A stretch of DNA of 43,511 nucleotides from IMG/VR virus record IMGVR_UViG_3300043178_000071, positions 1 to 43,511 of that record; one strand, 5' to 3'. A program made the translations under genes and the position numbers. Positions within the stretch are counted from its first letter, which is position 1. Each line of letters starts with the position of its first letter. The notes below the pieces were generated by a model that worked only from the letters and a program-made list of their open reading frames with translations, was not told the origin of the DNA and ran no database searches. Source of the stretch: a virus. This document shows positions 6,302 through 22,685 of this stretch, piece by piece.

Positions 6302-6306
6302 AACCA

Positions 6307-9696: not shown

Positions 9697-9792
9697 GCCA
9701 GACGACGGGGGTCTTTCCGGCGCTTACAGACGGTGTGCGCAAGTCTCCACGACCGCCGCGGCGACCGCGGCCGACGAAGAAAGGCTGACCGG

Positions 9793-11841
9793 ATGGCGAC
9801 CATGCGCGACCCCTTCGAAGTCCGCCTGAATGACGACCAACGGAAGGTCTTCGGGCTGTGGCTGTGCGACGAGATTCAGCGGGGGATTGACGCGCGAGGC
9901 GCGTCGACGGCTGAATGCGACTACTGGCACCAGCTCTATGAGCAGGCCCGCACGCGGACTCGTGCCCCCTGGCCGGATGCGGCGGACCTCACGAGCTATC
10001 TCGGCTCGGAAAAGGTCGACGCGCTGCAGGCCCGGCTGCTGCGGTCGATCTGGGTCGACCCAGTGTGGACGGTCGAAGGCTGGGGGGATGCAGCCGAACG
10101 AGCGCCGTTTGTCGAGGAATTTCACCAGTGGAAGGCTGAAGAGGAACGGCTGCAGTCCGTATTGGATCGCCTGAGTTTGATTAGCCTCATCGAACCGCGT
10201 GGCCTGCTGGAGATCGCGGAAGGCACGGAGATGCGCCCCGTGCGGAAGTCGGTGCGCGCGAAGGTGGACACCGACCCGGTGACAGGCGGCGTCTACTACG
10301 ACGAGGCGATGCAGCCGCAGCTCGCGATGGGGCTGGATGGGCGCTATGTGGAGGCGCAGGACGGCGAGGCGTATGCCGAGACGGTCATTGACTCCTGGGA
10401 GCGCATCCGCACGGGGCCGGTGTATCGCATCCTGCCGTATCGGGATTCGCTGATTTTGCCGGGGCATGCCCGCGACCAGGACGAGATCTGGGGCTACGGT
10501 AAGCGGTTCTGGCGACCATGGGGTGCGCTCAAGCGCGGGGCCGAGTCAGGCCTGTATGACCGTGACGCGGTCGACCGCATGAGCAGCACGAGCGACCGCG
10601 AGTCCGATCCCGCCCTCGAGCGCGCCGGGCAGGCGGTCGCGCCGAGCGACGACGATCAGGCCGAAAAAGAACTCTGGGAACTGCTCGTGCTCGTCGACCT
10701 CGGGGCGCTGCTGGCGGCGCGCGGGGAACGCGTCCCACGCGGACTTCGGGCGATGGGGCCGCGGTGGTATCTGACCACGGTGCATCTGCAGACTTCGGCC
10801 CTCTTGCGGGTGCAGTATGACGACCTCGAGCGGAGCCGCTTTGTCCCCGTGATCTTGTTCCCGCGCCCGGACCGCTGCACGGAAGGCTATTCGTTCATCG
10901 GCCACAAGCTCGTGACGACGATCGAAGAGCATACCGCTTGGCGAAATATGGCGGCGGACCGAGCGGCGATGGTCGTGCAGGCCCCCATGAAGCGGATGCT
11001 CGGCGCGATCTGGGATCCGCTCGAGCAGCCCTGGGGGCCGAAGGCGGTCATCGACGTGCAGGACATGAACGAAGTGCAGCCGGTGCAGGTGCCGGACTAC
11101 ACGGGGCCGGCGTTCCAGCACCTAGCGATGATGGAGCGCACCGCGGAACGGATCGCCGGGGTGAACGACATCGCGTCGGGGCAGATATCGACCGAACAGC
11201 GGACGCTCGGTGAAGTGCAGATGGCGACCGCGAACAGCGCCGTGCGTATGGATGTCGTGATCCGGCGGTTCCAGGACGCGATGGAGCAGATCGGCGATAT
11301 CCGGCATGCGATCTGGCAACGCACACTGGCGGCGCACCCGGACGGGCTGGAAGCGCCCGCGGCACTGGTCCACAATCTGGAAGGGCGGGGCGTGCCGATT
11401 GACCAGTTCCTGCCGGACAAACGCATCACGGCCAGTCTCTTGCGGGGGGCCTTCCGCTTCAAGCCGCGGGGGAGTGTTGAGACAGCCGATCCACAGCTCA
11501 TGCGACAGGACTTCGTGCTGTTCTTGTCACAAGCCCTGCCGATGTTGGCGCGGACGTTTCCGATGCTGGCGCCAATGTTCGCGACGCCACAGGCGGCGCG
11601 GGCGATGGCGCGGCAGGCGCTACGGTTATTCCGGGTCGAGAACCCGCAGGCGTTTCTGGGGAGTCCGGCGCAGGACCTGGCACAGACGATGCTCACGTCG
11701 CTGCCGGGGATGATGGGCGGGATGCTGGGGCAACCCGGTCTGCCGGGCGCGGGGCCGCCCCTGAACCCATTAGCAGCGGGACAAGCGCCAGATCCGCTGG
11801 GGGCGACGCCGGAACTGTCACCGGGGATGCGGCCGTCATGA
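9793..11841 (+). CDS. Portal protein (682 aa from ATG 9793)
   Basis: Its size and position directly after terL support the call, as does GAAAGG upstream of ATG 9793. The family was not verified. Confidence 0.7.
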   Translation: MATMRDPFEVRLNDDQRKVFGLWLCDEIQRGIDARGASTAECDYWHQLYEQARTRTRAPWPDAADLTSYLGSEKVDALQARLLRSIWVDPVWTVEGWGDAAERAPFVEEFHQWKAEEERLQSVLDRLSLISLIEPRGLLEIAEGTEMRPVRKSVRAKVDTDPVTGGVYYDEAMQPQLAMGLDGRYVEAQDGEAYAETVIDSWERIRTGPVYRILPYRDSLILPGHARDQDEIWGYGKRFWRPWGALKRGAESGLYDRDAVDRMSSTSDRESDPALERAGQAVAPSDDDQAEKELWELLVLVDLGALLAARGERVPRGLRAMGPRWYLTTVHLQTSALLRVQYDDLERSRFVPVILFPRPDRCTEGYSFIGHKLVTTIEEHTAWRNMAADRAAMVVQAPMKRMLGAIWDPLEQPWGPKAVIDVQDMNEVQPVQVPDYTGPAFQHLAMMERTAERIAGVNDIASGQISTEQRTLGEVQMATANSAVRMDVVIRRFQDAMEQIGDIRHAIWQRTLAAHPDGLEAPAALVHNLEGRGVPIDQFLPDKRITASLLRGAFRFKPRGSVETADPQLMRQDFVLFLSQALPMLARTFPMLAPMFATPQAARAMARQALRLFRVENPQAFLGSPAQDLAQTMLTSLPGMMGGMLGQPGLPGAGPPLNPLAAGQAPDPLGATPELSPGMRPS

Positions 11842-11957: not shown

Positions 11958-12229
11958 CGGATTTGCGCGAGCATCTCGACAATTTGCTGAAATCGCCGGG
12001 CTGGCAGTGGTTGGAGCACGACGTGCTCGACCGGTGGCAGACCGAATTGGTCAATTACGTCGGGCAGGCCGCCGCGCACGAGAACGACGCGATTGCGAGC
12101 CAACGGATTCGCCAGGTGGTGGCCGCGCATAAGGCAGTGCAACAGGTGTTTGCCCGGCCTAAAGAGAAGCTGCGGGAATTGACGACAGTGCCGCCGCCTG
12201 AAACGTGGAGCCGACGAGGCCCGCTGTGA
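11954..12229 (+). CDS. Hypothetical head-module protein (91 aa)
   Basis: The ORF has genome-typical codon bias and coupled starts and stops. Confidence 0.6.
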   Translation: MTDLREHLDNLLKSPGWQWLEHDVLDRWQTELVNYVGQAAAHENDAIASQRIRQVVAAHKAVQQVFARPKEKLRELTTVPPPETWSRRGPL

Positions 12230-12624
12230 GTGACGTGGTCCTGACCCCGCTGGCGGATCGCGTGTTGATTCGGCCAGCCCCGAAGCCGACGGAAACCGCC
12301 TCCGGCCTTGCCCTCGTACAGGACTGGACGCCGGACCAGACCGGCACGGTCGTGGCCATTGGGCGCGCACGGCATCCGTTGCACGATGTCGCGTCGTCAC
12401 TGGCCCACAAATTGCGCACCTACGCCCGCAGCGACGACGACTACGCCGACACCCTGAAGGATGCGGCGCGACTCCTCCTGCAACTCACGGCCTATGAGCC
12501 GAGCGTCCAGGTGGGGGATGAAGTGATCTTCTCCTGGCGTTCCGGGCAGGAACTCGTCCTCAACCAGGGCGAATCCCGGTTCATCCTGCTCAAAGAATCG
12601 GATGTCTTAGCCGTGATGGAGTAA
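12226..12624 (+). CDS. groES: GroES/Cpn10-like co-chaperonin with an internal ~45-aa insertion
   Basis: VLTPLADRVLIRP...TASGLAL...GTVVAIG...VQVGDEVIF...ILLKESDVLAVME aligns by eye with GroES (PLHDRVIVK..SAGGIVL..GEVLAVG..VKVGDIVIF..LIMSESDILAIVE). The GTG 12226 start forms a GTGA overlap. Confidence 0.7.
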   Translation: MSDVVLTPLADRVLIRPAPKPTETASGLALVQDWTPDQTGTVVAIGRARHPLHDVASSLAHKLRTYARSDDDYADTLKDAARLLLQLTAYEPSVQVGDEVIFSWRSGQELVLNQGESRFILLKESDVLAVME

Positions 12625-12630
12625 GCCTGC

Positions 12631-13533
12631 ATGCCTGAACCGTTACAGATCGAAGACACGCATCCCGAACCGGACACGGCACCGACGCCGGCGGCACCAC
12701 CGGCCGCCGAGGCGGCGGCGACCGCCGCCCCACCCGCCGCCACAGAACCCGAGCCCCTGATCGATCCGGACACGGCCGACCTCACCGATGAACGCGTGCG
12801 CACGGGTCTGTTGGGCGAAATCAAGCGGCTACGGCAGGAAAACCGCCTACTGAAGCCCGCCGCGGCCGATGCGGAACAATTGCGCGCCTGGGCGCACGCC
12901 AATCAGCCATATGTGGAGTTCCTCCAGAAGCATCCCGACTTTCTGGCGGCGCGTCCGGCTGCGCCACCCGCGTCCGCGACGCCGACCGAGGATCCGGATG
13001 CCCTGGAAGCGGCCCAGTTGATGGACTTCTACACGGCCGACGGCAAGGCGGATATCGACAAGGGTCGTCGCTGGCTCGCCCTGCAGGACCGGCGCGCCAG
13101 CCGGCTGGCGCAGCAGGCCGTTGAGCCGTTGGCGCAGAGCCGGACGCAGGCCCAGGCCGAGAACAATTATCGGCAGTTGCTGGGACTCAAGCTCCCGGAT
13201 GGCACGCTGGTGCGAAAGGACACCGTGGACGCCTTCTGGCGCCGAGCGGCGGCGGAACCCAATGGGTTACAGACCTTGGCCGATCCACAGAGTCTGGCGG
13301 GGATCGCGCTGATGGTGCTCGGGGCGGAAGCGATGAGTCGACAACAGCCGGTGGCCCCGCCGTCCCGAGAGCCCCTGGTGACCGAACCCTCGGGGGGCAC
13401 ACCGGGGCAGATGCCGCGCCTGTCCGATCTCGAACGGCGCGTCGTCGCGGCGCGGGGCGGGATCTCCGAAAAGGAGTGGACCGAGAAAACGCGGGGCTTC
13501 CAGCCGGGACGCCCAATGATTCTGGAGGACTAG
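12631..13533 (+). CDS. Putative scaffolding protein (300 aa, Pro/Ala/Glu-rich N-terminus, helical)
   Basis: Position and composition only. Confidence 0.4.
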   Translation: MPEPLQIEDTHPEPDTAPTPAAPPAAEAAATAAPPAATEPEPLIDPDTADLTDERVRTGLLGEIKRLRQENRLLKPAAADAEQLRAWAHANQPYVEFLQKHPDFLAARPAAPPASATPTEDPDALEAAQLMDFYTADGKADIDKGRRWLALQDRRASRLAQQAVEPLAQSRTQAQAENNYRQLLGLKLPDGTLVRKDTVDAFWRRAAAEPNGLQTLADPQSLAGIALMVLGAEAMSRQQPVAPPSREPLVTEPSGGTPGQMPRLSDLERRVVAARGGISEKEWTEKTRGFQPGRPMILED

Positions 13534-14058
13534 ATGGCACGCAAGAAAGAGGGCGAGGGCGTCACCGGGCCGCGTCTGCCACGCCCCAGCGTGGAAGTTC
13601 TGGAACGGTCCCTGGCGAATCCGTTCGGGCTCCCGGATGCGGAGGTACGGCTGACGGACCCGTCAGTCCTGACCCACTGGTGCAATACCGGCATCGGGGG
13701 GCATCAGCTCGGGAAGTATCTTGATGCGGGCTATCTGAAGGTCACCCCCGACATGTTGGCCGATCGAGATCGGGTGTCGTTCGTCGCGAGTCCGGAGGGG
13801 TATGTGGTGCGCGGGCATCGCGGCGAGGAAATCCTGCTCTACACGCCGCGGGACTGGTATCGCCGACGGCAGGAGGCGAAGGAAGCCGAGAATCGGGCAG
13901 CGATGGACCCGATGCGGACGAAGCGTCAACTCGTGCAGGCGGCGTCCGAGAAGCTGGGGGACGAAGCCGCGACCTATCTCGACGGGCATGTTGGGCCGAC
14001 GGGCAGTGTGCGGGACAGTTATGAGCGCATCGAAGTGCTGCCCGAGGGTGTGGAGTGA
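13534..14058 (+). CDS. Hypothetical head-module protein (174 aa)
   Basis: An ORF with good codon bias. The ATG follows the stop of the upstream gene directly. Confidence 0.6.
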   Translation: MARKKEGEGVTGPRLPRPSVEVLERSLANPFGLPDAEVRLTDPSVLTHWCNTGIGGHQLGKYLDAGYLKVTPDMLADRDRVSFVASPEGYVVRGHRGEEILLYTPRDWYRRRQEAKEAENRAAMDPMRTKRQLVQAASEKLGDEAATYLDGHVGPTGSVRDSYERIEVLPEGVE

Positions 14059-14465
14059 TCCTGTGTTCGGGGTGCTTTGACGGGCTGCACGCTGGACACG
14101 TCGCGTATCTGCGCCAGGCGGCCGCGGTGGGTCCTGATGATGTGGTCGTGGCGGTGGCGTGCGATGACTACATCCGGGACATCAAACGTCGGGAACCCCG
14201 GTGGACGGTCGCGCAACGGGTGCAGGTTGTGAAGGCGCTCCGCTGGGTGTCGGCCGTCGTGGTCCACGGACCACGTGGGGTGGCACATCTGATCGATGAA
14301 TTGCGGCCCCGGTGGTTTGTGAAAGCGTCCGATTGGACCGGGCCCGCGCTCGAAGCCGAAGGCGTCACCCGCGCCGCCGCCGCGACCGGGACCCAGATCA
14401 TCTTTGTGGATGTCGTCGATGTGCCGCGCTGTGCGGACGTGGTATGGCCTGGCGCTACCCCCTGA
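14055..14465 (+). CDS. HxGH nucleotidyltransferase (cytidylyltransferase-like; TagD / RfaE domain II type)
   Basis: MILCSGCFDGLHAGHVAYLRQAA..VVVAVACDDYIRDIKRREPRWTVAQRVQVVKALRWV matches the G-x-F-D-x-x-H-x-G-H family layout. The start forms a GTGA overlap. Confidence 0.7.
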   Translation: MILCSGCFDGLHAGHVAYLRQAAAVGPDDVVVAVACDDYIRDIKRREPRWTVAQRVQVVKALRWVSAVVVHGPRGVAHLIDELRPRWFVKASDWTGPALEAEGVTRAAAATGTQIIFVDVVDVPRCADVVWPGATP

Positions 14466-15586
14466 CCCATCCGGATGGGGTGACGGCAGAGGCGGTCGCG
14501 GACGCCGTGGCCTGTCTGCAGTCCGGTGCGCATACGATGGGCGCCCGGGTCGAAGCCTTCGAACAGGCGATCGCGGCGGCGGTGAACGCGCGGCACGCGA
14601 TCATGGTCAACAGCGGCTCGAGCGCCAACCTGCTGGCGGTCGAAGCACTCGTGGCGCCGTCATCCGGGCGGGGCGTGTGGCGGGCGGGTGACCGCATTGC
14701 CGTGCCCGCGCTCTGCTGGCCGACGAGCGTGTGGCCGCTGGTGCAGCGGGGCCTCGTTCCCGTGTTTGTCGACATCGAACCGCACACGTTGGGGATTGAC
14801 GCGGACCAGGTGCCCACGTCGATTGCGGGGGTGGTGCTCATTCATGTCATGGGTTGTCCCGCGCAGGCCACACTGCCGTTGCTACGCCGCGGCCTGTTGA
14901 TGCTCGAAGACACCTGCGAATCGTTCGGGGCACGGCTGGCGGGGCAGGCGTGCGGCACCTTCGGTGTCATCGGCACGTATTCACACTACCTGGCCCATCA
15001 GGTGACCAGCATCGAAGGCGGCACGGTCATCGCGAATGCGGATAGCGTGGCGGATGATGTCCGGTCGATGCGGTCGCACGGTTGGACCCGCCAGCGGCAG
15101 GACCGGCAGGACGAGGGGCGCTGGTCGTTCGTGACGACCGGCTACAACGTGCGGCCGGTGGAAGTCACGGCGGCGGTTGGTCTCGCGGAACTGCGGGGGT
15201 TCGAAGCCGTGCGGATTGGCCGTCGGATGCGCGCGGCCCAGATGCGGCGCTGGTTGGCGGCGGCGGGATTGACGGTGCCGTTTCCCGAGGATGACGGTGT
15301 GTCGTCCACGGGGTATCGGCAGAGCCTGATGTATGTGCCAGTACTGGCCTCGTCGGCGGCGCATCAGGCCGCGGCGGTGGCGCATCTGACGGCGTGTGGC
15401 GTCGAGACGCGCCCGATTCTCACCGGCAATTTCCTCGCGCAGCCCGTCATGCGGCAGGCCGGATATGACCCGACGCGGTATCCGGTGACGAATGACGTCG
15501 CGGCGCGGGGCTTTCTGCTCGGGTGTCACCCGGCGACGGATGGGGCGGTGTTGGAGGAGGCGCTCAGCCGTGTCCCTGTGGCCTGA
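14444..15586 (+). CDS. DegT/DnrJ/EryC1-fold PLP-dependent sugar-modifying enzyme (aminotransferase, or ColD-like 3-dehydratase)
   Basis: GARVEAFEQAIA...IMVNSGSSANLLAVEAL...GDRIAVPALCWPTSVWPLVQRGLVPVFVDIEPHTLGID is family-typical. The conserved Lys position reads His in YSHYLAHQVTSIEGG. Confidence 0.8.
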   Translation: MAWRYPLTHPDGVTAEAVADAVACLQSGAHTMGARVEAFEQAIAAAVNARHAIMVNSGSSANLLAVEALVAPSSGRGVWRAGDRIAVPALCWPTSVWPLVQRGLVPVFVDIEPHTLGIDADQVPTSIAGVVLIHVMGCPAQATLPLLRRGLLMLEDTCESFGARLAGQACGTFGVIGTYSHYLAHQVTSIEGGTVIANADSVADDVRSMRSHGWTRQRQDRQDEGRWSFVTTGYNVRPVEVTAAVGLAELRGFEAVRIGRRMRAAQMRRWLAAAGLTVPFPEDDGVSSTGYRQSLMYVPVLASSAAHQAAAVAHLTACGVETRPILTGNFLAQPVMRQAGYDPTRYPVTNDVAARGFLLGCHPATDGAVLEEALSRVPVA

Positions 15587-15704
15587 TGCCGTGCTCGTGC
15601 TCGGATGGTCGCCGGGAGACCTGGTCGTGGCGGCGGTGACGGGCGCACTGGTGGCCTGCGGCCTCGGCGTCCTGGCGGACGGGGTACGGGGGTCGCGACG
15701 GTGA
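15570..15704 (+). CDS. Possible 44-aa membrane peptide
   Basis: GTG start with a hydrophobic core VVAAVTGALVACGLGVLA. The stop overlaps the next GTG. Confidence 0.25.
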   Translation: MSLWPDAVLVLGWSPGDLVVAAVTGALVACGLGVLADGVRGSRR

Positions 15705-16648
15705 TCGGGCCTTATGATGCCATCGTGTCGTATCACACGGACACGCAGGCCTGCGGGACGGCGAAGTTTAACGCTCTGCTCGCGGCGCGGCTCGGCGTGC
15801 CTGTGGTGACGCTGGCAGAGGCGCGCGCGTGTCAGTGTCCGCTCTACTCGATACGCGGCGAGGAAATGGCTGCGGACGGCGTGCGCCGCGTGGACCCGAT
15901 CGCGCCCACCTTCGGTGTGTTCGTGCATGATTGGGTTGAGGGGCTGACCGACCGCCTCGTTCACGCGGCGACCACAGTGTATGCGGCGAACGCGACCTTG
16001 ATGCGTCGCGCCAGCCATCTGCGCGCGGACGTGGTGCCCGTCTGGTGCCCGTCCACCATTACGCCGACGCATCTCGACCAGGCTCCGCGAGCGATTCTCA
16101 CCTTCGGCATGCTGCATAAGTTCGACGCGGACCGGTATCGGCGGTTGAAAGACCTCCTTGATGCGGATGGGGATCCCTACGAGCTGCTCGTGTCGTATTC
16201 GGTCCACCACGGCCAGCCCGCCGACGAGCGGCAACTGATCGAACAATTCGAAGATGTGTTCGGGAGCGGCTATCACGATGCCGGTCGCGCGCGCGTGACC
16301 GTGCTGGGGCAACTTTCGGACACGGCGTTGATCCGCGAACTCCCGCGCGTCGTGGCGGTGGCCGTGTTCTACGATCCGGCCGTGCGCGCCAACAATACGA
16401 CGGCGTGGATGGCGCTCGAGTGGGGGCGGTGTCTCATCACGAATCTGGACGCCGACTCCCCTGCGGCGTTCGTGCATGGCACAACGGTGTATGACGTGAA
16501 CCGCCTCGATGTCTGGCCGACCGATAAGGCACGGGTGGCGCAGGCGGCGCGACGGGTGGCGGCGGACCATTCGTGGGATCGCCTCGTGGAACGGCTATGT
16601 ATCGCAACGGCATCGGCGGCGGCCATAGCAGCAGTCGGGCCCCGGTAG
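15701..16648 (+). CDS. GT-B (GT1/GT4-like) glycosyltransferase candidate
   Basis: PRAILTFGMLHKFDADRYRRLKDLL...YELLVSY and VTVLGQLSD..VAVAVFYDPAVRANNTTAWMALEWGRCLITN resemble the C-terminal domain layout of GT4 enzymes. The match is weak. Confidence 0.45.
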   Translation: MIGPYDAIVSYHTDTQACGTAKFNALLAARLGVPVVTLAEARACQCPLYSIRGEEMAADGVRRVDPIAPTFGVFVHDWVEGLTDRLVHAATTVYAANATLMRRASHLRADVVPVWCPSTITPTHLDQAPRAILTFGMLHKFDADRYRRLKDLLDADGDPYELLVSYSVHHGQPADERQLIEQFEDVFGSGYHDAGRARVTVLGQLSDTALIRELPRVVAVAVFYDPAVRANNTTAWMALEWGRCLITNLDADSPAAFVHGTTVYDVNRLDVWPTDKARVAQAARRVAADHSWDRLVERLCIATASAAAIAAVGPR

Positions 16649-16719
16649 GGGCGGACGCGATTGACGACGGCTTGGGCGAGTGGTGTCGCGGCGATCTGTG
16701 TGTCGGATTTTTCAAAGAG

Positions 16720-17232
16720 ATGTGGTATGCGGGCCGGATTCCTATTCCATTCGGGGCGCGGATCCTCGAAATCGGCGCGGCCGAAGTGGACTGGTCGGCC
16801 CCGTTCAAGGCCCGTCGGCCGGACGTGCAGATCACGGCCCTCGATCAGCGCTTCGTCGAGCGGCCCGCGGCGGATGTCTGGTTGCAGAAGGATTTGCTCG
16901 TCGCGGGACCGGAGCTATTTCCGCGCCAGAGTTTCGATGTCGTGGTCGCCATCAGCGTGATCGAACACGTCGGCATCGGTCGCTACGGGGACCACGTCGA
17001 CCCGGACGGCGATATCACCGTAATGCAATACCTCAAGCGATGGTTGCGCCCGGACGGGGTGATGTATCTCGATGTGCCCTATCGGCCGGACGGCCCTTCG
17101 ACGCCGTTCCGCGCCTACAACGAGGCGGACCTCCAGCAGCGGGTAATTCAGGACTGGCGCGTCATCGACCGGCAGTTTTTCACGTCCACGCATCCCGACG
17201 GGCCCTATATCGCGCTGGTGCTCAGGCCGTAG
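16720..17232 (+). CDS. Class I SAM-dependent methyltransferase-like protein
   Basis: ARILEIGAAE (motif I-like) and FDVVVAISVIEHVG...LKRWLRPDGVMYLDVP are present. The start is uncertain (TTG 16672, ATG 16597 or ATG 16720). Confidence 0.5.
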   Translation: MWYAGRIPIPFGARILEIGAAEVDWSAPFKARRPDVQITALDQRFVERPAADVWLQKDLLVAGPELFPRQSFDVVVAISVIEHVGIGRYGDHVDPDGDITVMQYLKRWLRPDGVMYLDVPYRPDGPSTPFRAYNEADLQQRVIQDWRVIDRQFFTSTHPDGPYIALVLRP

Positions 17233-17234
17233 GC

Positions 17235-18140
17235 ATGCGCGAACTCGTCATTGACCATCGACGGATTGCCGACGACACGCCAGGCTATGTGATTGCCGAA
17301 CTCGGCAACAATCACGGCGGGTCGCTCGACCAGGCGCGCGCGCTGCTGCAGATGGCGGCCGAGGCCGGCGTCGATGCTGTCAAGTTCCAGAAGCGGGAGA
17401 CCGACCGCCTCTATACGTCGGCGCTCCTCGCCGCGCCGTATGACCATGAACACAGCTACGGGCCGACGTATGGGGCGCACCGGCGGGCGCTTGAGCTGTC
17501 CGAAGCCGACCTTGCGTGCCTCTTCGATGAGGCCATCGACCACGGGGTCACCTGCTTCGCCACGGCCTTTGATGAATGGTCCGTGGATGCCCTGATGCGG
17601 ATCGGCGTGCCCGCGATCAAGATTCACTCCGGTGGCATTGCCGATATCCCGCTCTTGACGCACGCGGCTCACCAGGGTGTGCCGCTGATTGTCTCGACGG
17701 GCGGGGCGTCGCTGGACACGATTGACCGCGCGCACGGCCTGCTGGCGGACGCGGGCGCGCCCCATGCGCTCTTGCATTGCACGGCGGCCTATCCGCTGAA
17801 GCCGGCGCAGGCGAATCTGCGGGTGATTGAGACGCTCCGCGCGCGGTATCCTGACACGGTGATCGGCTTTTCGTCGCACGCGACCGGGATCGCGTGGTCG
17901 CTGGTCGCCGCGGCCTTGGGCGCGCGTATCCTTGAACATCATGTGACGCTGGACCGCGGGGGCAAGGGCACGGACCACGGGTTCTCGCTCGAACCGAAAG
18001 GGCTGCGCACGCTCGTGGATGATCTGGCGAAGCTCCACACAGCCCTCGGGGACGGGGTGAAGCGCGTCTATGCGAGCGAAGCGGCGCCGCTCGCCAAGAT
18101 GACGCGGCGCGAGACGCCGGAAGGATGGAAGATTGGCTGA
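17235..18140 (+). CDS. neuB: NeuB-family nonulosonic acid synthase (sialic/legionaminic/pseudaminic acid synthase type), without a SAF domain
   Basis: The peptide contains YVIAELGNNHGGSLDQARALLQMAAEAGVDAVKFQKR and ..IKIHSGGIADIPLL..PLIVSTG..LLHCTAAYP..NLRVI..L. At 301 aa it ends before the usual C-terminal SAF domain. Confidence 0.85.
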   Translation: MRELVIDHRRIADDTPGYVIAELGNNHGGSLDQARALLQMAAEAGVDAVKFQKRETDRLYTSALLAAPYDHEHSYGPTYGAHRRALELSEADLACLFDEAIDHGVTCFATAFDEWSVDALMRIGVPAIKIHSGGIADIPLLTHAAHQGVPLIVSTGGASLDTIDRAHGLLADAGAPHALLHCTAAYPLKPAQANLRVIETLRARYPDTVIGFSSHATGIAWSLVAAALGARILEHHVTLDRGGKGTDHGFSLEPKGLRTLVDDLAKLHTALGDGVKRVYASEAAPLAKMTRRETPEGWKIG

Positions 18141-18558
18141 GCACGACATCCCGATTGCCCCCTACGCGCCGCAGGTGCTCGCGCGACCGTGGGGCGAAGA
18201 AATCTTTATCGCCCAAACGCCGCGCTATCTCGGCAAGCTCCTGCAGATGCGCGCGGGCACGGCGGGCGGCCTGCAATACCATGTTGAGAAGGACGAGACG
18301 TTTTACCTGCTGTCCGGGTCGGCTCTCGTGGACTCGGTGATTGGGGGCACACTGGTGCGGCAGCCAATGGGCGCCGGGCAGGCCTTTCACATTCCGCCGG
18401 GGGCGGTGCATCGGGTGACCGCCGTCACCGACTGTGTGTTTGTGGAAACCTCGACTCCCCACTATGACGATCGTGTCCGCGTCGAAGCCGCGTTCGGGGA
18501 GCCAGACACCGGGGGCTTGCCCACGACATGGCCAACGACTGGCGCGCCGTCGCGCTGA
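18133..18558 (+). CDS. Cupin-fold protein (mannose-6-phosphate isomerase type II C-terminal-like)
   Basis: RPWGEEIFIAQTPRYLGKLLQMRAGTAGGLQYHVEKDETFYLLSGSA..HIPPGAVHR. The TTG start overlaps the neuB stop. Confidence 0.6.
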   Translation: MAEHDIPIAPYAPQVLARPWGEEIFIAQTPRYLGKLLQMRAGTAGGLQYHVEKDETFYLLSGSALVDSVIGGTLVRQPMGAGQAFHIPPGAVHRVTAVTDCVFVETSTPHYDDRVRVEAAFGEPDTGGLPTTWPTTGAPSR

Positions 18559-19265
18559 TTCCCGCGCGCGGCGGGTCGCAACGCTGCCCCGGGAAGAATC
18601 TGCGGCGGCTCAATGGTCATCCGCTGGTCGCGCACGCGATCGCGGCCGCCCAGCAATCGGGCCTGTTTGCGGGGGTGTATGTGTCGTCCGAGGATGAGGA
18701 CACCTTGCGCGTGGCGAGCGCTTATGGCGCGACGGCGCTCGCGCGGGCGGCCGACTTGGCCCGCCACGACACGCCGGACTATCCCTGGGTCCGCGACGTG
18801 ATCGTCCGCCTCCACCCGCGCCCGCACATCTTTGCCATTGTGCGCCCGACGAATCCGTTCCGCACGGGCGCGACGATGCGGCGCGCGTGGCGCATCTTCC
18901 GTGAACCGGACGCGACCTGTGACAGCGTGCGGGCCGTGCAGCCCGTGACCGAACATCCCGGGAAGATGTGGACGTGGGCGGGGCCGGGGTATCCCCTACG
19001 GCCCTATGTGGACCGGACCCATCCGGATGGAACGCCGTGGCATTCGTCCCCCACGCAAGCGCTCCCACCAGTCTACGTCCAGAATGCGGCCCTGGACCTC
19101 GCGTGGTCCGCGAACGTGTTCGAGCACGGCACCATTGCCGGGCGGAAAGTGGCGCCGTTGTTCACCGAAGGACTGGAAGGCGTGAACATTGACACCGAGG
19201 AGGATTGGGAGCGGGCCGTGCGCCTGGCGGCGGCGCATCCGGAGGCGTTGTGTCTGACCTCGTGA
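18528..19265 (+). CDS. neuA: NeuA-type acylneuraminate (CMP-nonulosonate) cytidylyltransferase
   Basis: AVALIPARGGSQRCPGKNLRRLNGHPLVAHAIAAAQQSGLFAGVYVSSEDE matches the IPARxGSKxxxxKN..L.G.PL family signature. Confidence 0.8.
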   Translation: MANDWRAVALIPARGGSQRCPGKNLRRLNGHPLVAHAIAAAQQSGLFAGVYVSSEDEDTLRVASAYGATALARAADLARHDTPDYPWVRDVIVRLHPRPHIFAIVRPTNPFRTGATMRRAWRIFREPDATCDSVRAVQPVTEHPGKMWTWAGPGYPLRPYVDRTHPDGTPWHSSPTQALPPVYVQNAALDLAWSANVFEHGTIAGRKVAPLFTEGLEGVNIDTEEDWERAVRLAAAHPEALCLTS

Positions 19266-20389
19266 TTCCGAGGATTCCGATGGACCCGCCCTCGAGCGGC
19301 GCGGCCGCGCCCGCGGTCTCGGCGGCGCCGCCGGGGCCCACGCCGTGGCCGCGGGTCGTGCGTCTCCGGCGGGCGCTGTGGCCGGCCTATGCGCGGTCTC
19401 TCGCGTCGACGTCGGCACCAATTCTTGTCGGCCCCTGGCGGGGCGAACTCGGCTATGAAGCCTTCTACTGGCAACCGTGGATCGCGCAGTGGATGAAGCG
19501 GTGGCGGATTGATCCCGCGCGGGTCATTCCGATCGCGCGGGGCGGGACGGGAGTCCTCTATGGCTGTCCGCGAGGGGTAGAACTCTACGGTCTGCGGACG
19601 CCAGACGAAGTCGCGGTTCAGGTGCGCCTGGACCAGCGGCGCACGGGCTGGGCGAAGCAGTTGACGGTCACGCCGTTTGATCGGCAGGTGCTGCGGGATG
19701 TGGCCCGGACGCTTGGCCTCCGGCGGTATCGCGTCCTGCATCCCGCGTGGATGTATGCGGACCTGGAGCCGTTCATTCAGACCGAACGGGGGCTGCGCTG
19801 GGTGCTGCGCCGGATGGACCTTGGCCGGGTGGCGCCGCCCCCGCTCCCGGACGGGCTGACACTGCCCGAACCGTATGTGGCCGTGCGCTTCTATGCGCGG
19901 GCGACCTATCCGGTCCTGCCGGTGACGACCGATTTCGCGCGCGAAGCTATTCGGCAGATGGCCCGGCAGTTTCACGTTGTCATCCTCAATGCGGACAGTC
20001 CTGACGAGCATGTCGACTACCACCCAGAACGGTCGGATCGGGTCATTTATCTGTCGGACCGCGTGCGCCTGACGCCAGACACGGTGCTTGGCACGCAGGC
20101 GGCCGTGATGGCGCGGGCGCTGGGATTCGTCGGGACCTATGGCGGGCTGGCCCATCTTGCCCTTCGCCTCGGCACACCCTCGATCGGGTTCTATTGGGAC
20201 TGGCATGGCACCACGCCAGCTAACCGGCATCTGACGGCGCATCTGTCACTGGTTTCTGGGCAACCCGGTCTCGTCATGGGGCTCGCGGATCTGGCCGTGC
20301 TACAACAAGTGGTGCCCGTGTTGCAATTACGGATGAAATCTGCTAGCGTCGGTTCGTCGTCGGTGGTCGCCGCGCCGACGACGCCATAA
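19262..20389 (+). CDS. Hypothetical 376-aa protein, possible GT-B-fold (GT9-like) glycosyltransferase
   Basis: It is the last gene of the sugar module, starting with a GTGA overlap. ILVGPWRGELGYEAFYWQPW and FVGTYGGLAHLALRLGTPSIGFY resemble GT9-type donor-site motifs, weakly. Confidence 0.4.
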   Translation: MIPRIPMDPPSSGAAAPAVSAAPPGPTPWPRVVRLRRALWPAYARSLASTSAPILVGPWRGELGYEAFYWQPWIAQWMKRWRIDPARVIPIARGGTGVLYGCPRGVELYGLRTPDEVAVQVRLDQRRTGWAKQLTVTPFDRQVLRDVARTLGLRRYRVLHPAWMYADLEPFIQTERGLRWVLRRMDLGRVAPPPLPDGLTLPEPYVAVRFYARATYPVLPVTTDFAREAIRQMARQFHVVILNADSPDEHVDYHPERSDRVIYLSDRVRLTPDTVLGTQAAVMARALGFVGTYGGLAHLALRLGTPSIGFYWDWHGTTPANRHLTAHLSLVSGQPGLVMGLADLAVLQQVVPVLQLRMKSASVGSSSVVAAPTTP

Positions 20390-20413
20390 CGCGCACGGGC
20401 GTTGTGTCGACGC

Positions 20414-20439
20414 CGGCGGGAGTCCTCCCTCTCCCGCCG
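20414..20439 (+). terminator. Hairpin CGGCGGGAG-(8 nt)-CTCCCGCCG after the sugar module
   Basis: A perfect 9-bp stem lies 25 nt after the stop at 20389. There is no U-tract. Confidence 0.4.
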
Positions 20440-20463
20440 TAGTCGTATCCGTCGCAGGGACGG

Positions 20464-20486
20464 GCCGGGTCGCCGCCGGCATTTTC
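20464..20486 (+). terminator. Hairpin GCCGG-(7 nt)-CCGGC followed by ATTTTC
   Basis: A 5-bp GC stem plus a short T-run. Confidence 0.3.
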
Positions 20487-20640
20487 ACCGGGCGTTCGTC
20501 TCGCGGGTCGCCACCGCGTCGATCTGGGCGTGATTCGGGTTCGGCTGGTGAACGGAAGACCAGCGGGACCGGCTTCGCATCTTCCTCCAACACCACGGTA
20601 GTGCTCGGGTGGCCTGTCGCCAGCCGAGGGGAGATCACGC

Positions 20641-21201
20641 ATGGCCCAGATTACCCTGTCGTCAGGGTCCTACTGCCGGCCGTATCGGAGTCCGTGGGGG
20701 AGCTTCCCCACCCGCGGGATGCCGATTTCGACCGGCGTGTCAACCACGACCATTCACGTCGGCGGGCTGGTCAAACTGGATGACCGCACATCGACCTGTC
20801 AACACCGGATCTTTCAGTCCACCGGCGCGGCGGCCATCATTGCGGAAGACCTCATCGTCGGCATTGCCGCGGAACGCATCAGCGGCTCGACGGCGACGGT
20901 CGACACGACCATTCCCGTGTGGGAAGCGAATCCCCATGTGGAGTTCCGCGCGGCGACCAAGGGCGCGGCCCTCGCCGGCAGCAACGTCGGATCGGCCTTT
21001 TCGCTCGGCTGGGACTCGACGCTGAATATTGTCTACGTGGACCTGGCTGATTCCACGGCGACGAATCAGCGGGTCGTCGTCACGGAACTGTTGGGCTCGG
21101 TTGGCGATTCCAACGCCGATGTCGCGTTCAAGTTCCTCGCCACCGATCGCGCGAGCACCAACAACAGTTCGATCGCGTACCTCGCGTTCTACAGCCGTTA
21201 A
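20641..21201 (+). CDS. Structural protein upstream of the capsid gene (possible decoration/accessory head protein)
   Basis: GGGGAG lies upstream of the ATG. The 186-aa protein is Ser/Thr/Ala-rich and immediately precedes the MCP. Confidence 0.5.
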   Translation: MAQITLSSGSYCRPYRSPWGSFPTRGMPISTGVSTTTIHVGGLVKLDDRTSTCQHRIFQSTGAAAIIAEDLIVGIAAERISGSTATVDTTIPVWEANPHVEFRAATKGAALAGSNVGSAFSLGWDSTLNIVYVDLADSTATNQRVVVTELLGSVGDSNADVAFKFLATDRASTNNSSIAYLAFYSR

Positions 21202-21213: not shown

Positions 21214-22134
21214 ATGGCCCAGACACGAGGCACGTTTGACGCGCTGTACGACAATGTTGACAAGACCGTCGCCGGGATCATGAAGGCGCAGCTCGATGAG
21301 CTGCCCCGGATTTACCCGTCGATCTACAACATCAAGACCTCGGATCGGAAGTTCGAGCGGGTGGTCACCTATGTGCCGTTCTCGCAGACGGCCACGAAGC
21401 CGGAAGGCCAGCCGTATGCCTTCGAGAACATCCGGCAGGGGTTCACCAAGGACTTCACGCATACCGAGAATGGGCTCGGGTTCGAGGTAACCCAGACGGC
21501 CCTCGAGGACGATCCCGAGAACCTGCTGACGAAGGCCGGCCAGTGGCTGGCGTTCTCGGCCCGGTATCTGGAGGAACAGCGGGCGGCGAATCCGTTCAAC
21601 AACGGGTTCGGCAGCGAAACCACGCCGGATGGGGTGTCGCTGTTCAACACCGCGCATCTGCTGGCTGGCGGGGGCACGGCCCGCAACACGCTGGCGACCG
21701 CGGCCGACTTGTCGGCCACGTCCCTGACCACGGCGTTGATTGACCTCCAGACCCAGACGGTCGATGAAGCGGGGCATCTTGCCGCGCCGCTGAAGTCGAT
21801 CATTCTCTACGTGCCCCCGGCGCTGGAGTTCCTGGCGCACCGGCTCGTCAAGAGCGAACTGATGCCGGGATCGGCGGACAATGACCTGAACACGATCCGC
21901 ACACAGCGGACGTGGCGGGTGGTCGTCAATCCGCACCTGTCGGATAGCGACGCGTGGTTCCTCGTGTCGGGCACCAAGTCCATGCATGCCCTGACGTTCT
22001 ACCGGCGCACGCCGATCACGCTCGAACCGATGGACAAGGACGCGCGGACGGGGAATCGCATCTGGAAAGTGCGACACCGGTTCAGCGTCGGCGCGTGGGC
22101 GTGGCAGAACACCTACGGGTCGCCGGGCGCGTAG
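21214..22134 (+). CDS. Major capsid protein (HK97-fold type expected)
   Basis: It has the strongest SD in the window (AAAGGAG). At 306 aa it is followed by a strong hairpin, and its position and size are typical for an MCP. Confidence 0.8.
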   Translation: MAQTRGTFDALYDNVDKTVAGIMKAQLDELPRIYPSIYNIKTSDRKFERVVTYVPFSQTATKPEGQPYAFENIRQGFTKDFTHTENGLGFEVTQTALEDDPENLLTKAGQWLAFSARYLEEQRAANPFNNGFGSETTPDGVSLFNTAHLLAGGGTARNTLATAADLSATSLTTALIDLQTQTVDEAGHLAAPLKSIILYVPPALEFLAHRLVKSELMPGSADNDLNTIRTQRTWRVVVNPHLSDSDAWFLVSGTKSMHALTFYRRTPITLEPMDKDARTGNRIWKVRHRFSVGAWAWQNTYGSPGA

Positions 22135-22673: not shown

Positions 22674-22685
22674 CGGTGGAGGGCC

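Follow-up and report, generated by a model that had tools for sequence, protein, structure and literature searches.

A putative nonulosonate cassette in the head operon of an uncultivated phage clade, with the virion as a possible acceptor

Why would a phage carry genes for making and transferring sugars among the genes for its head, and on what would those sugars be placed? The question is raised by eight close-packed, same-strand genes at 14055-20389 (+ strand) of the window, by which we mean the whole stretch of DNA analysed (43,511 nucleotides of an IMG/VR virus record), a complete, circular genome of 42.9 kb. All eight ORFs (O1 to O8) described in the initial annotation of this DNA were found on the + strand at the positions first assigned to them, with a coding-like GC3 of about 0.74-0.83. 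Their GC content (0.65-0.69) is the same as that of the rest of the genome, and the insertion is therefore not recent. No integrase was found in the complete circular genome, which argues against lysogenic conversion.

The cassette forms part of the late head operon. Of the three GTGA overlaps originally described, two are real: the TGA stop of the upstream gene scaf2 overlaps the GTG start of O1 (14055), and the stop of O7 overlaps the start of O8 (19262). The third, at 15701, does not involve the gene before it, since O2 already ends at 15586; the TGA at 15702-15704 terminates a 70-aa ORF that is probably spurious, and the O3 start at 15701 (giving 315 aa) is backed by the JGI gene call. Inside the gene run, searches gave 0 promoter and 0 terminator matches. 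The proposed position in the late head operon, with translational coupling to the upstream gene, is thus supported by the sequence, and because the cassette genes would be co-translated with the scaffold genes, they are probably produced late in infection.

The flanking genes are less evenly characterised. The major capsid protein (21214-22134, +), of HK97 fold and Phage_capsid_4 type, was confirmed by a match to PHROG 371 (major head protein; 7.4e-14) and by tblastn to the capsid genes of Pelagibacter phage HTVC027P and Roseobacter phage CRP-902 (32-38% identity). The names "scaffold" and "decoration" given to the other neighbours are guesses from position. The scaffold-like gene scaf1 (12631-13533, +) encodes an acidic protein (pI 4.96) with no match in family searches; its homologues are syntenic, and the order portal-GroES-scaf1-scaf2 is common to all relatives. 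In at least 12 relatives, a homologue of scaf2, the second small head-operon gene (13534-14058, +), stands immediately 5' of the cassette. Likewise, the putative head-decoration protein (186 aa; 20641-21201, +) had no match in family searches; throughout the clade its gene is the immediate 5' neighbour of the major capsid gene.

A 251-nt spacer (20390-20640, +) separates the cassette from the decoration and capsid genes. Hairpins had been proposed to close the gene run at 20414-20486, and a 9-bp GC hairpin is indeed present at about 20413-20441, along with a further hairpin, in which a base change is compensated, and blocks that are conserved in an alignment of the spacer. Searches turned up neither a sigma-70 promoter nor a convincing intrinsic terminator; terminator-like matches numbered 4 against 5.0 expected from shuffles (0 of them in the spacer), and the fold of the spacer is unexceptional (z = -1.48). 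The window has just two copies of a bipartite motif, GCC[AG]CCG-N8-13-GGGCGT, at 20472 and 20510 (0.27 expected). In its strict form the motif is also present in 5 of the 15 relatives scanned, in the same spacer except at L025:19590, with no match in the other 10. The spacer is a candidate for a late promoter or for a leader with a regulatory role.

What does the cassette encode? As family assignments, we hold its enzymology with high confidence on structural matches and on profile matches much stronger than chance would give, with the limit that no equivalog-level cut-off is reached. The module of a NeuB synthase and a CMP-nonulosonate synthetase, with tailoring enzymes and two GT-B proteins, is genuine, and by profile both O5 and O7 fall inside the families first proposed for them. 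O5 (301 aa; 17235-18140, +) matches PF03102 (NeuB) over the full model (1.3e-67) as its sole Pfam match, and consists of the TIM barrel only, ending before the SAF domain as first described. It scores 234.5 bits against TIGR03569 and 186.9 bits against TIGR03586, both under the equivalog cut-offs, and its PDB matches include SpsE (1vli, 5e-46), the Leptospira enzyme 6ncs, likewise without SAF (5e-41), and NmNeuB (6e-30). The His residues of its SSH and EHH motifs, which we take to be metal ligands, align with those of SpsE. O5 is 57-68% identical to at least 120 homologues about 300 aa long; its close homologues are all of this length and all without SAF. Cellular homologues are NeuB+SAF proteins. 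O7 (245 aa; 18528-19265, +) is a CMP-nonulosonate cytidylyltransferase of NeuA/PseF type, with matches to PF02348 (CTP_transf_3, 2.4e-16) and PseF TIGR03584 (4e-27, under cut-off) and a full-length alignment to N. meningitidis CMP-NeuAc synthetase (1eyr, 1.7e-15); KdsB structures match less well (5e-8 or worse). Between them, O6 (141 aa; 18133-18558, +) is, as proposed, a cupin, small and metal-binding (Cupin_2 2.7e-9; GMP_PMI TIGR01479 2e-5; MannoseP_isomer PF01050 4.1e-5, just above cut-off). All of 15 homologues keep its motif Q48-x-H50-x4-E55...H93 unchanged, and a PDB profile search gave generic cupin matches only. O6 is a candidate sugar isomerase/epimerase, either PMI-type-II-like or a nonulosonate-tailoring enzyme.

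The remaining three enzymes also agree with their first descriptions. O1 (136 aa; 14055-14465, +) is an HxGH nucleotidyltransferase by its matches to PF01467 (CTP_transf_like, 1.9e-14), TIGR02199 (rfaE_dom_II, 9e-21, under equivalog cut-off), PHROG 7878 (annotated heptose kinase/adenylyltransferase, 1.2e-15) and, in the PDB, ethanolamine-P cytidylyltransferase (3elb, 5.7e-15), HldC (5x9q, 2e-7) and TagD (2b7l, 6e-7); its predicted role is to turn a phospho-sugar or phospho-alcohol into an activated NDP derivative. O2 (14444-15586, +; 380 aa from ATG 14444) has the DegT fold (PF01041 1.6e-58; RfbH NF011936 2.5e-53, under cut-off), and its best PDB match is ColD (2gms, 1.5e-47). Aligning O2 SHYLAHQVTSIEGG to ColD SFYSHHIATMEGG places a His, matching the catalytic His188, at the Schiff-base Lys position. 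In the same column 3b8x has N and 2r0t has K; both are presumably H188 point mutants of ColD. This alignment supports the earlier reading of the Lys-to-His change as marking a ColD/E1-type, PMP-dependent sugar 3-dehydratase. A ColD-type gene was found in only 2 genomes, the other being L030 (the only other phage homologue of O2 found; 48% identity, His kept), and other relatives have a second methyltransferase in that slot. Within the cassette, O2 is accessory. O4 (16573-17232, +, with an uncertain start and an alternative ATG at 16597) is a class-I SAM methyltransferase (PF03269, DUF268, 1.4e-12; PF13489, Methyltransf_23, 6e-7). Its orthologue (41-62% identity) lies directly 3' of the portal gene in most relatives and within the cassette in L028; in L065 and L066 the post-portal slot holds an FkbM-type methyltransferase.

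The two GT-B-like proteins of the initial annotation do adopt GT-B folds in their AlphaFold2 models. O3 (315 aa; 15701-16648, +; pLDDT 85.5) had no match in Pfam, NCBIfam or PHROG, and the top PDB folds for its model are GT4-type GT-B proteins (Asp1, SenB, VldE, TreT and BshA; TMq 0.5-0.66). With 469 representatives among 1.84e9 proteins, its family is small and represents a new GT-B family. GT4 catalytic motifs were not recognisable in an alignment inspected by eye. Some family members carry CTP_transf_like fusions, one weakly matches Glycos_transf_1, and homologues lie immediately 5' of NeuB+SAF in Vicinamibacterales chromosomal loci. O3 may act as a glycosyltransferase, or it may hydrolyse an NDP-sugar to feed NeuB. 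O8 (375 aa; 19262-20389, +; pLDDT 89.1), the last cassette gene, encodes a probable GT9-like glycosyltransferase, with a marginal match to PF01075 (Glyco_transf_9; 1.5e-5, residues 231-312). In the PDB its model comes closest to the GT9 enzymes 3tov, WaaC and TibC, at low TM-scores of about 0.35-0.39, followed by UDP-GlcNAc 2-epimerases and KpsC; among BFVD entries it most resembles phage GT9 and Aah/TibC-like proteins. We counted these low scores, and the lack of GT4 motifs in O3, against our best explanation of the cassette.

How might these proteins work together? The genes fall into two biosynthetic branches, alongside two soluble GT-B transferase candidates. In the first branch, O5 would condense PEP and an aldose to a 3-deoxy-2-ulosonic (nonulosonic) acid, with O6 acting beside it, and O7 would activate the acid to a CMP-sugar. 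In the second, O1 would yield an NDP-activated sugar or alcohol, tailored by O2 and O4; most relatives have, instead of O2, a methyltransferase fused to O1. As first observed, a 4,6-dehydratase, an N-acetyltransferase and a canonical 2-epimerase are all missing from the genome, and the host would supply the absent precursors, among them a hexose or hexose-phosphate for O5 and, for O2, the product of a 4,6-dehydratase; the missing partner of O2 was also counted against our best explanation. C3 of the hexose becomes C6 of the nonulosonate, the ring oxygen position. The earlier proposal of a deoxy nine-carbon sugar made through the ColD-like enzyme is therefore chemically awkward, and O2 more likely acts in the second branch. 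For the sugar, we would guess at an acid of Kdn type, without amino groups: there are no amino-sugar enzymes and the cupin site is PMI-like (Gln-His-Glu-His). Alternatively to being a transferase, O3 may be the NDP-sugar hydrolase that provides NeuB with its free sugar, the role of PseG and LegG, which would leave O8 as the sole transferase. Functional linkage within the cassette is suggested by fusions of O1 to a Methyltransf_23 domain (L002, L005, L015, L031, L065 and L066) and, elsewhere, of O1-type to O3-family domains (P0431, P0436 and P0466).

The cassette is not peculiar to one phage, although none of the GenBank phage records carries it, in keeping with the original impression of novelty. 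It occupies the same position in about 15 of 32 IMG/VR contigs, both flanks being visible in 11. The order portal-(methyltransferase)-GroES-scaf1-scaf2-O1-...-O3-NeuB-cupin-CMP-T-O8-deco-MCP is fully visible in 11 contigs and partly in about 10; at least twenty relatives thus have a cassette of this kind in the head operon. A cassette in the head operon is the standard layout of this uncultivated clade. In contigs with this gene order, the capsid protein is 66-74% identical to that of the window, and O8 only 38-51%. In more distant relatives the cassette lies in the late region just upstream of terminase; in the L001-L004 subclade it adjoins DNA methylases and terminase, away from the capsid genes, an arrangement that we counted against a virion acceptor. 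The nucleotidyltransferase and two GT-B proteins are present in nearly all relatives, while NeuB, cupin, CMP-synthetase and ColD are optional or swapped. L065 has an SDR in place of the cupin, L002 lacks both cupin and CMP-synthetase, and the L066 cassette has only a nucleotidyltransferase-methyltransferase fusion and the two GT-B proteins; NeuB and NeuA are hence not the constant, defining pair they were taken for. Cassette homologues also occur in chromosomal nonulosonate/polysaccharide loci of Vicinamibacterales.

On what, then, would the sugars be placed? We tentatively favour, at somewhat short of even chances, the phage's own structural proteins, glycosylated by a cassette made late in infection. 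O3 and/or O8 would transfer activated sugars in the cytoplasm, most plausibly onto the decoration protein (23% Ser+Thr, with a conserved core and variable Ser/Thr-rich loops in its alignment), the capsid protein, or two small Ser/Thr-rich proteins encoded at 22224-23111; the neighbouring candidates have 23-26% Ser+Thr. This would give the progeny a coat of methylated glycan with an acidic sugar. There is a precedent in mycobacteriophages: a phage-encoded O-methyltransferase and glycosyltransferases are described as modifying proteins of the capsid and the tail tube (Freeman et al. 2023, as summarised in PMC11600133). We counted the conserved place in the head operon and the Ser/Thr-rich neighbours toward this reading, gene position being circumstantial for the choice of acceptor.

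O8 itself is compatible with other acceptors. It is strongly basic (pI 10.4, net charge +15; family median pI 9.45), which also fits an anionic lipid, and Kdo-lipid A is the classical acceptor of GT9 enzymes. Remodelling of the host envelope is nevertheless less likely than modification of the virion, with no flippase, polymerase, Und-P transferase or Gtr-type protein found. Nor was a clear transmembrane segment seen, and the predicted machinery would be cytoplasmic and soluble, which favours modification of the virion. A DNA acceptor would also suit the charge of O8, and in L035 an O8-like gene lies between C5 and N6/N4 DNA methylases with no sugar-synthesis genes nearby; even so, TET and ThyS were looked for and neither was found, and we regard DNA glycosylation as the least probable of the three. 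T4 DNA glucosyltransferases are absent from the top 50 BFVD matches of O8. O8 is nearly phage-restricted, and the 251 homologues found lie mostly on 41-54 kb contigs. An O8-like gene occurs in an unrelated HK97-type phage (L038) among protease-capsid, portal, collagen-repeat and methyltransferase genes, a setting that we counted in favour of a virion acceptor.

Here, we regard the run of eight plus-strand genes at 14055-20389 (O1 to O8), lying between scaffold-like and decoration/major-capsid genes, as a solid and testable lead; its key claim, a nonulosonate on the virion, is a proposal. The cassette encodes a predicted enzyme for condensing PEP with an aldose and a predicted enzyme for activating the resulting ulosonic acid with CMP, and with these a second nucleotidyltransferase that is accompanied by tailoring enzymes, plus a pair of soluble GT-B proteins. 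All of the parts fall into known superfamilies (NeuB, CTP_transf_3, DegT/ColD, HxGH nucleotidyltransferases, cupins and GT-B). We consider fold and reaction type to be securely predicted, which does not extend to the substrates; every cassette gene misses equivalog-level cut-offs. The run itself, as first read in the initial annotation, is real and its boundaries stand. Two of the GTGA overlaps reported there (14055 and 19262) are true stop/start overlaps, but the third, at 15701, does not overlap O2, which ends at 15586.

The phage genome has a GC content of 66%, and that of the cassette equals that of the remaining genome. The last 603 bases (42909-43511) are identical to positions 1-603, so the window is a complete genome, closed or terminally redundant, with 42,908 unique bp; its sequence is also identical to a JGI metagenome contig of 43,511 bp. 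All on the plus strand, the terminase (8043-9548) is followed by an SU10-type portal (9733-11841), a GroES (Cpn10)-like co-chaperonin (12205-12624), two unannotated head-operon genes (12631-14058; called scaf1 and scaf2 from their position), the cassette, a 251-nt spacer (20390-20640), a small Ser/Thr-rich gene termed decoration-like, again from its position (20641-21201), and the major capsid gene (21214-22134). The capsid protein shares 32-38% identity with its nearest deposited relatives, including Pelagibacter phage HTVC027P and Roseobacter phage CRP-902. Pfam scans covering every substantial ORF of the complete genome found no integrase, and neither tRNAs nor Rfam families were found in the window. 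The GroES-like gene keeps its position, after the portal and before the scaffold-like genes, in all relatives, and its product may help to fold the capsid, as T4 gp31 does.

Is the arrangement peculiar to this phage? The initial annotation was aware of no described phage with such a module at this position, which holds for deposited records: against 50,697 phage records, megablast of the cassette and tblastn of O8 gave no match, and tblastn of NeuB gave only three weak, unrelated matches (at most 33% identity). It does not hold for environmental genomes, however, as the layout recurs in at least 11 from IMG/VR rather than in one phage. Scanning IMG/VR with the O8 family yielded 32 loci, with the layout taken from a tblastn map; both flanks are visible in 11 contigs, and about 10 more show a truncated form of the same layout. 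The common order is portal, methyltransferase, GroES, scaf1, scaf2, O1, a variable slot, O3, NeuB, cupin, CMP-synthetase, O8, decoration and capsid. In these relatives the capsid is 66-74% identical to that of the window and O8 only 38-51%, indicating that the arrangement is old and maintained. A distant subclade from Hainich groundwater (capsid identity 53%) has the same genes directly upstream of the terminase.

The cassette appears to diversify as an O-antigen locus does, with cupin exchanged for SDR, methyltransferase for a ColD-type enzyme, and NeuB present or absent. The slot after O1 is usually taken by a Methyltransf_23 enzyme, often fused to O1, and holds a ColD-type gene only in the window and in one relative, L030. 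Another relative (L065) has an SDR in place of the cupin, a second (L002) is without cupin and CMP-synthetase, and a third (L066) retains only an O1-methyltransferase, O3 and O8, with NeuB and CMP-synthetase absent. These compositions point to a recurring core of nucleotidyltransferase, methylation and two GT-B proteins, the O1 and O8 pair being constant; the nonulosonate branch is frequent but optional among relatives. As for O4 (16573-17232, +), a class-I SAM methyltransferase by profile match, genes of its type (DUF268/Methyltransf_23) usually lie directly after the portal, with FkbM/Methyltransf_21 instead in L065 and L066. A post-portal methyltransferase is always present in the relatives, its family varying at a fixed position (L012:3230-3835, L065:3213-3803, L066:5417-6034), which looks like non-orthologous replacement; the window O4 is that methyltransferase, moved into the cassette.

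The nonulosonate branch begins with O5 (17235-18140, +), a NeuB-type synthase of 301 aa whose match to PF03102 (1.3e-67; 228.2 bits against a cut-off of 22.1) covers positions 2-241 of the 241 in the model, placing it within the NeuB family as had been claimed. Its GFSSH and LEHH align with GFSDH and IEKH of SpsE (1vli), and its DHGFSLEP with DHSFALNP; the aligned O5 His residues we take to be metal ligands, the residue roles being those of the N. meningitidis NeuB literature. The earlier observation that the synthase stops before the SAF domain is borne out, O5 having no PF08666 match and the phage homologues all being of about 300 aa with PF03102 only, whereas the cellular neighbours in chromosomal loci carry NeuB plus SAF. 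There is a SAF-less precedent in the PDB, the Leptospira enzyme 6ncs, and this and B. subtilis SpsE are the nearest solved structures. Specificity for Neu5Ac or Pse was not assigned by equivalog, O5 scoring 234.5 with TIGR03569 (cut-off 399.65) and 186.9 with TIGR03586 (cut-off 340.25).

Also confirmed as a member of its proposed family, the CMP-nonulosonate synthetases, is O7 (18528-19265, +; PF02348 60.7 bits, cut-off 22.6), which aligns over its full length with N. meningitidis CMP-NeuAc synthetase 1eyr (residues 7-233). Its N-terminal Arg/Lys CTP-binding motif, PARGGSQRCPGKN, aligns with LARQNSKGLPLKN of 1eyr, and it scores nearer NeuA and PseF than KdsB; the PseF equivalog TIGR03584 gives 95.3 against a cut-off of 205.7, over the N-terminal half only. 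Between the two lies the cupin O6 (18133-18558, +), whose Gln-x-His-x4-Glu...His site is invariant and whose match to a type-II phosphomannose-isomerase (PMI) domain is borderline. A single-sequence PDB search with O6 found nothing, and because a PDB profile search returned generic cupins only (oxalate decarboxylase, KdgF and, at E of about 0.01-0.02, PGI and PMI), the PMI assignment is tentative.

The module contains no 4,6-dehydratase, acetyltransferase or canonical hydrolysing epimerase, in agreement with the first reading, and also no Lys-bearing aminotransferase, which suggests that host precursors would be used. Alternatively, the product could be a non-aminated acid such as Kdn, which would require a mannose-type substrate only. 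The PMI-like cupin is compatible with Kdn, and the SDR found in its place in L065 fits post-condensation tailoring equally. Expression of the cassette would be late, together with the head proteins, as suggested by the stop/start coupling of O1 to scaf2 and by the lack of promoter or terminator signals within the cassette.

Upstream of this branch, O1 (14055-14465, +; PF01467 1.9e-14) is an HxGH nucleotidyltransferase. Among NCBIfam models it matches HldE domain II best (9e-21), well under the equivalog cut-off, and it also matches a PHROG annotated as heptose kinase/adenylyltransferase; its best PDB match is an ethanolamine-phosphate cytidylyltransferase, above HldC and TagD. The next gene, O2 (14444-15586, +; PF01041 1.6e-58), is a DegT-fold enzyme of the ColD/E1 type, with ColD (2gms, 1.5e-47) as its closest solved structure. 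A His had been read at its Schiff-base Lys position, and the alignment agrees: the column holds H in wild-type ColD, N in 3b8x and K in 2r0t, entries which we take to be the H188N and H188K mutants. The L030 homologue has the same His. As to a partner NDP-hexose 4,6-dehydratase, no window ORF has an Epimerase, GDP_Man_Dehyd or Polysacc_synt_2 domain, so that the host would have to supply the dehydratase and reductase partners of O2. We did not adopt one linear pathway including O2, since loss of the hexose C3 hydroxyl is loss of the ring-oxygen position (C6) of the future nonulosonate; for the same reason O2 probably serves a second sugar branch.

The remaining two genes, O3 and O8, define families without annotation, and PDB sequence-profile searches with both families gave nothing significant. 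Both had been called GT-B-like, and the AlphaFold2 models agree with this, predicting a GT-B fold for O3 (15701-16648, +; no family match; pLDDT 85.5), with GT4-type enzymes nearest, and for O8 (19262-20389, +; pLDDT 89.1). The top PDB folds for O8 are the GT9 enzymes 3tov, WaaC and TibC, at TM-scores of only 0.35-0.39, and its top BFVD matches are phage GT9 and Aah/TibC-like proteins. Its Pfam match is marginal (PF01075, 24.9 bits against a cut-off of 22, residues 231-312 only), and the stretch FVGTYGGLAHLALRLGTP resembles the GT9 C-terminal nucleotide-sugar motif by eye. O8 is also strikingly basic (pI 10.4; family median 9.45). The O3 family has few members (469 representatives among 1.84 billion proteins), and in three proteins its domains are fused to CTP_transf_like domains, linking O1 and O3 functionally.

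O3 could be either a transferase or a PseG/LegG-like hydrolase feeding NeuB. That it adjoins NeuB in cellular and phage loci alike speaks for the hydrolase, and the fusion to O1-type domains fits both. We did not adopt O3 as a canonical NeuC or PseG, neither being among its best 50 fold matches, though it may be a functional analogue. In Vicinamibacterales chromosomes, an O3 homologue lies immediately upstream of NeuB plus SAF, in loci that include a 4,6-dehydratase, aminotransferases, acetyltransferases, a CTP_transf_3 gene, an O1-like and methyltransferase pair, and an initiating sugar transferase. In two chromosomal contigs of this order (L006:1-20924 and L008:1-20924) the O3-family gene and NeuB plus SAF are accompanied by an SDR, an aldehyde dehydrogenase, a transketolase and a HAD hydrolase, and no canonical NeuC or PseG was found in these nonulosonate/polysaccharide loci; O3 may be a missing nonulosonate pathway enzyme in Acidobacteriota. 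The clustering of O3, O5 and O7 homologues there makes Vicinamibacterales a host lead. A capsid-profile scan of one genome per species found short binned MAG contigs only (71% identity in 'Pseudomonadota', 53% in Vicinamibacterales), and the host is probably not an actinobacterium.

The position of O3 directly 5' of NeuB in cellular and phage loci, the usual place of NDP-sugar hydrolases of the PseG/LegG/NeuC type, with no canonical NeuC or PseG seen in the cellular loci, speaks for a reading in which the cassette has no phage-specific acceptor. As auxiliary metabolic genes, O1 to O8 would boost or redirect host nonulosonate and sugar-nucleotide pools, for example by sustaining host surface-glycan synthesis or draining precursors, and the GT-B proteins would be hydrolases or epimerases; UDP-GlcNAc 2-epimerases, including NeuC 5xvs, do occur among the fold matches of O8. 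We consider this very improbable. The O8 family is almost restricted to phage-sized contigs, its best folds and Pfam match are GT9, and an activated donor without a transferase would be of no obvious benefit late in the lytic cycle. In addition, a pure pathway-booster role is unlikely given that L066 keeps its O1-methyltransferase, O3 and O8 without NeuB or CMP-synthetase.

What, then, might the acceptor be? We favour virion proteins, a reading to which we give slightly less than an even chance. It is supported by the cassette being kept inside the head operon across a diverged clade, by all of its components being cytoplasmic and soluble (no convincing transmembrane segment was found in O1-O8), by no integrase or lysogeny-type expression being apparent, and by an O8-like gene lying amid protease-capsid, portal, collagen-repeat and methyltransferase genes in an unrelated phage (L038). 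We also count in its support the Ser/Thr content of 23-26% in the decoration-like protein and two small downstream proteins; the decoration-like family has variable Ser/Thr loops (alignment A7). Mycobacteriophages, in which a methyltransferase and glycosyltransferases modify capsid and tail proteins, provide a precedent. More doubtful is the full version, in which a widespread clade of small environmental phages makes a CMP-nonulosonate that O3 and O8 attach covalently to head decoration/capsid proteins, where the acid may be of Kdn type and methylated or paired with a heptose-like sugar as in the LPS inner core.

In its GT9 resemblance and high pI, O8 is like typical peripheral-membrane LPS-core transferases, which would suit host-envelope remodelling, with O8, alone or with O3, adding the nonulosonate and a second activated sugar to the LPS core or to lipid-linked polysaccharide intermediates on the cytoplasmic membrane face. 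A late surface change of this kind could mask receptors, sparing progeny loss on infected cells and debris, or block superinfection. Homologues of O1, O3, O5, O7 and, weakly, O8 occur together in the Vicinamibacterales nonulosonate/polysaccharide loci, which include an initiating phosphoglycosyl transferase, and there are precedents in phage-borne ulosonic-acid enzymes with a CTP_transf_3 domain, namely the nonulosonate-modifying EpaA/EpaB of an A. baumannii prophage (PMC12053666) and the cyanophage 'cell-wall modification' genes KdsA/KdsB (PMC12801897), whose known or proposed target is the host surface polysaccharide. Unlike the window cassette, these sets are without a NeuB-type synthase and dedicated GT-B proteins and reside in temperate prophages or large myovirus accessory regions rather than in a head operon. 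Membrane, flippase and polymerase components were none of them found in the window. Moreover, a host-directed function would not predict the conserved place within head genes, nor does a late structural operon in a phage without detectable integrase resemble a lysogeny-expressed moron; lysogenic-conversion cassettes differ likewise from this one, with its translational coupling and no clear transmembrane segments. With an O8-like gene also adjoining a collagen-like structural gene in the unrelated phage, we judge envelope remodelling to be unlikely.

A third possible acceptor is DNA, with O8 moving activated sugars onto modified bases of the phage genome as a defence against host nucleases, much as in phage clusters that place hexose, heptose or Kdo on 5-hydroxymethylcytosine (5hmC). 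Transfer of heptose to 5hmC by a cytidylyltransferase and a GT-B enzyme has been shown, as has installation of a Kdo-like acid, and the metagenomic phage clusters in question, which use acidic ulosonic (Kdo-like) and heptose sugars, combine cytidylyltransferase-like and GT-B genes as the window does and are sometimes near structural genes (Pyle et al. 2023/2024; bioRxiv 10.1101/2023.12.21.572611). The very basic O8 would suit such a substrate. In addition, an O8-like gene in L035 is flanked by C5 and N6/N4 DNA methylases and a radical-SAM-like gene, the L003 cassette contains a weak C5-methylase-like gene, and among the window's own genes are a C5 methylase and a helicase-N6/N4 methylase fusion. 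Those clusters are defined, however, by an adjacent 5mYOX/TET or ThyS gene providing a hydroxymethyl handle, and Pfam searches of all substantial ORFs in the complete genome recognised no TET/JBP dioxygenase or thymidylate-synthase-like hydroxymethylase. The window C5 methylase is broken over three frames, and the scaffold-capsid placement implies very late expression. The Pyle et al. GT-B enzymes resemble T4 beta-GT, whereas O8 resembles GT9, TibC and WaaC; T4 alpha- and beta-glucosyltransferases are absent from the best 50 PDB or BFVD matches of O8 and from the best 50 PDB matches of O3. Glycan hypermodification of DNA is thus quite unlikely in our estimation, and virion proteins remain the acceptor we prefer.

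By analogy, the system would work as virus-encoded glycosylation does in mycobacteriophages and giant viruses, joined to a bacterial nonulosonate pathway. Virion glycosylation by viral enzymes has so far been demonstrated, to our knowledge, for mycobacteriophages among phages and for giant viruses among the others, and the mycobacteriophages concerned rely on host nucleotide sugars and are not known to carry a nonulosonate pathway. Che8, Corndog/cluster O and Myrna are described as glycosylating their own capsid/tail proteins (Freeman et al. 2023, Cell Host Microbe, cited through PMC11600133), and the phage methyltransferase and tandem glycosyltransferases described there are soluble, cytoplasmic and nucleotide-sugar-using, as in the window. 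The window adds NeuB, a CMP-synthetase, a nucleotidyltransferase and a ColD-type enzyme, and its candidate transferases (O3, O8) belong to other families. Predicted glycosyltransferase genes, with or without a methyltransferase, are found beside or within structural genes here too, the scaffold-like/capsid placement occurring in at least 11 genomes; glycans on the particles of this clade would be the predicted counterpart. Megavirinae fibril glycosylation also involves virus-made rare bacterial-type sugars of clade-specific composition, synthesised de novo and transferred to virion surface proteins (PMC10117803, PMC9614988), but by eukaryotic giant viruses with other sugars and enzymes rather than by a 43-kb tailed phage.

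As in the bacterial NulO pathways (NeuC-NeuB-NeuA, PseB-I/F, LegB-I/F and B. subtilis Sps), NeuB-type condensation would be followed by CMP activation by a CTP_transf_3 enzyme, a GT-B-fold protein adjoins NeuB, and the best structural homologue of O5 is SpsE; the window differs in its synthase without SAF and in having no dehydratase/aminotransferase/acetyltransferase trio and no canonical NeuC, PseG or LegG. In bacterial NulO O-glycosylation (Maf/FlmG on flagellins), transfer is cytoplasmic and to Ser/Thr of abundant self-assembling proteins; the cassette, by contrast, is phage-borne and has no Maf/FlmG-type transferase. ADP-heptose and GT9 systems (HldE/HldC, WaaC/WaaF; TibC/Aah) are approached by O1, nearest HldE domain II, and by O8, nearest GT9 including the protein-O-heptosyltransferase TibC, but O1 scores as well or better against ethanolamine-P/glycerol-P cytidylyltransferases, and no heptose kinase, isomerase or phosphatase accompanies it. 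The present system stands apart in that it encodes the synthesis of its acidic sugar, keeps a fixed place within the head operon of a phage of only 43 kb and diversifies in a cassette-like manner.

If the virion reading is true, the glycan would be the first of sialic-acid-like type to be shown on a phage particle, meaning that phage particles can bear self-made 'bacterial sialic acids', with a bearing on adsorption, aggregation, grazing/immune recognition and particle stability. A function could then be assigned to two orphan GT-B families, and a biological role to SAF-less NeuB enzymes. Even under the rival explanations, the cassette would be a compact, diversifying glycan-engineering module; with the complete genome sequence available, gene synthesis offers a direct way to test it.

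Downstream of O8 and 5' of the decoration and capsid genes lies a spacer (20390-20640) that the relatives conserve. The hairpins here had been taken to close the cassette; no terminator was found, and the fold z-score of the spacer is -1.48, so the intrinsic terminator idea is dropped. The motif GCC[AG]CCG-N8-13-GGGCGT occurs at 20472 and 20510, its sole matches in the 43.5-kb genome (0.27 expected). Of 15 relatives scanned with the strict motif, 5 have one to three copies in the same spacer and 10 have no match; one further copy is at L025:19590. One possibility is that the spacer acts as a tandem late promoter or as a leader bound by a regulator. The hairpin following the motif shows compensatory change, GGTCAG..CTGACC in relatives being GGAAGA..TCTTCC in the window.

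In the decoration-like family (A7), GDSGG is nearly invariant near the C-terminus, where the window has GDSNAD, and DSTL is invariant; a trypsin-like protease role seems unlikely since no His is conserved. In the unrelated HK97-type phage (L038:1999-11525), a protease-capsid fusion, a portal and a collagen-triple-helix repeat protein stand in a row with glycan-type genes, among them a weak MptE/Maf-like protein, two FkbM methyltransferases, the O8-like GT-B gene and another methyltransferase, an apparent second case, independent of the first, of a 'structural gene plus glycan' layout.

Elsewhere in the window, the early region encodes an SNF2-type helicase fused to an N6/N4 DNA methyltransferase (1324-3567; 747 aa), and a RecT recombinase is at 41090-42148. 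The split C5-cytosine DNA methyltransferase (5404-6350) has motifs I-VIII in 5404-5979 and motif X-like segments downstream in two other frames; it is either a pseudogene or the product of assembly frameshifts. The first ORF (58-798) has a low-complexity tandem run in which the 603-bp terminal overlap of the assembly ends, and this repeat may have limited the assembly.
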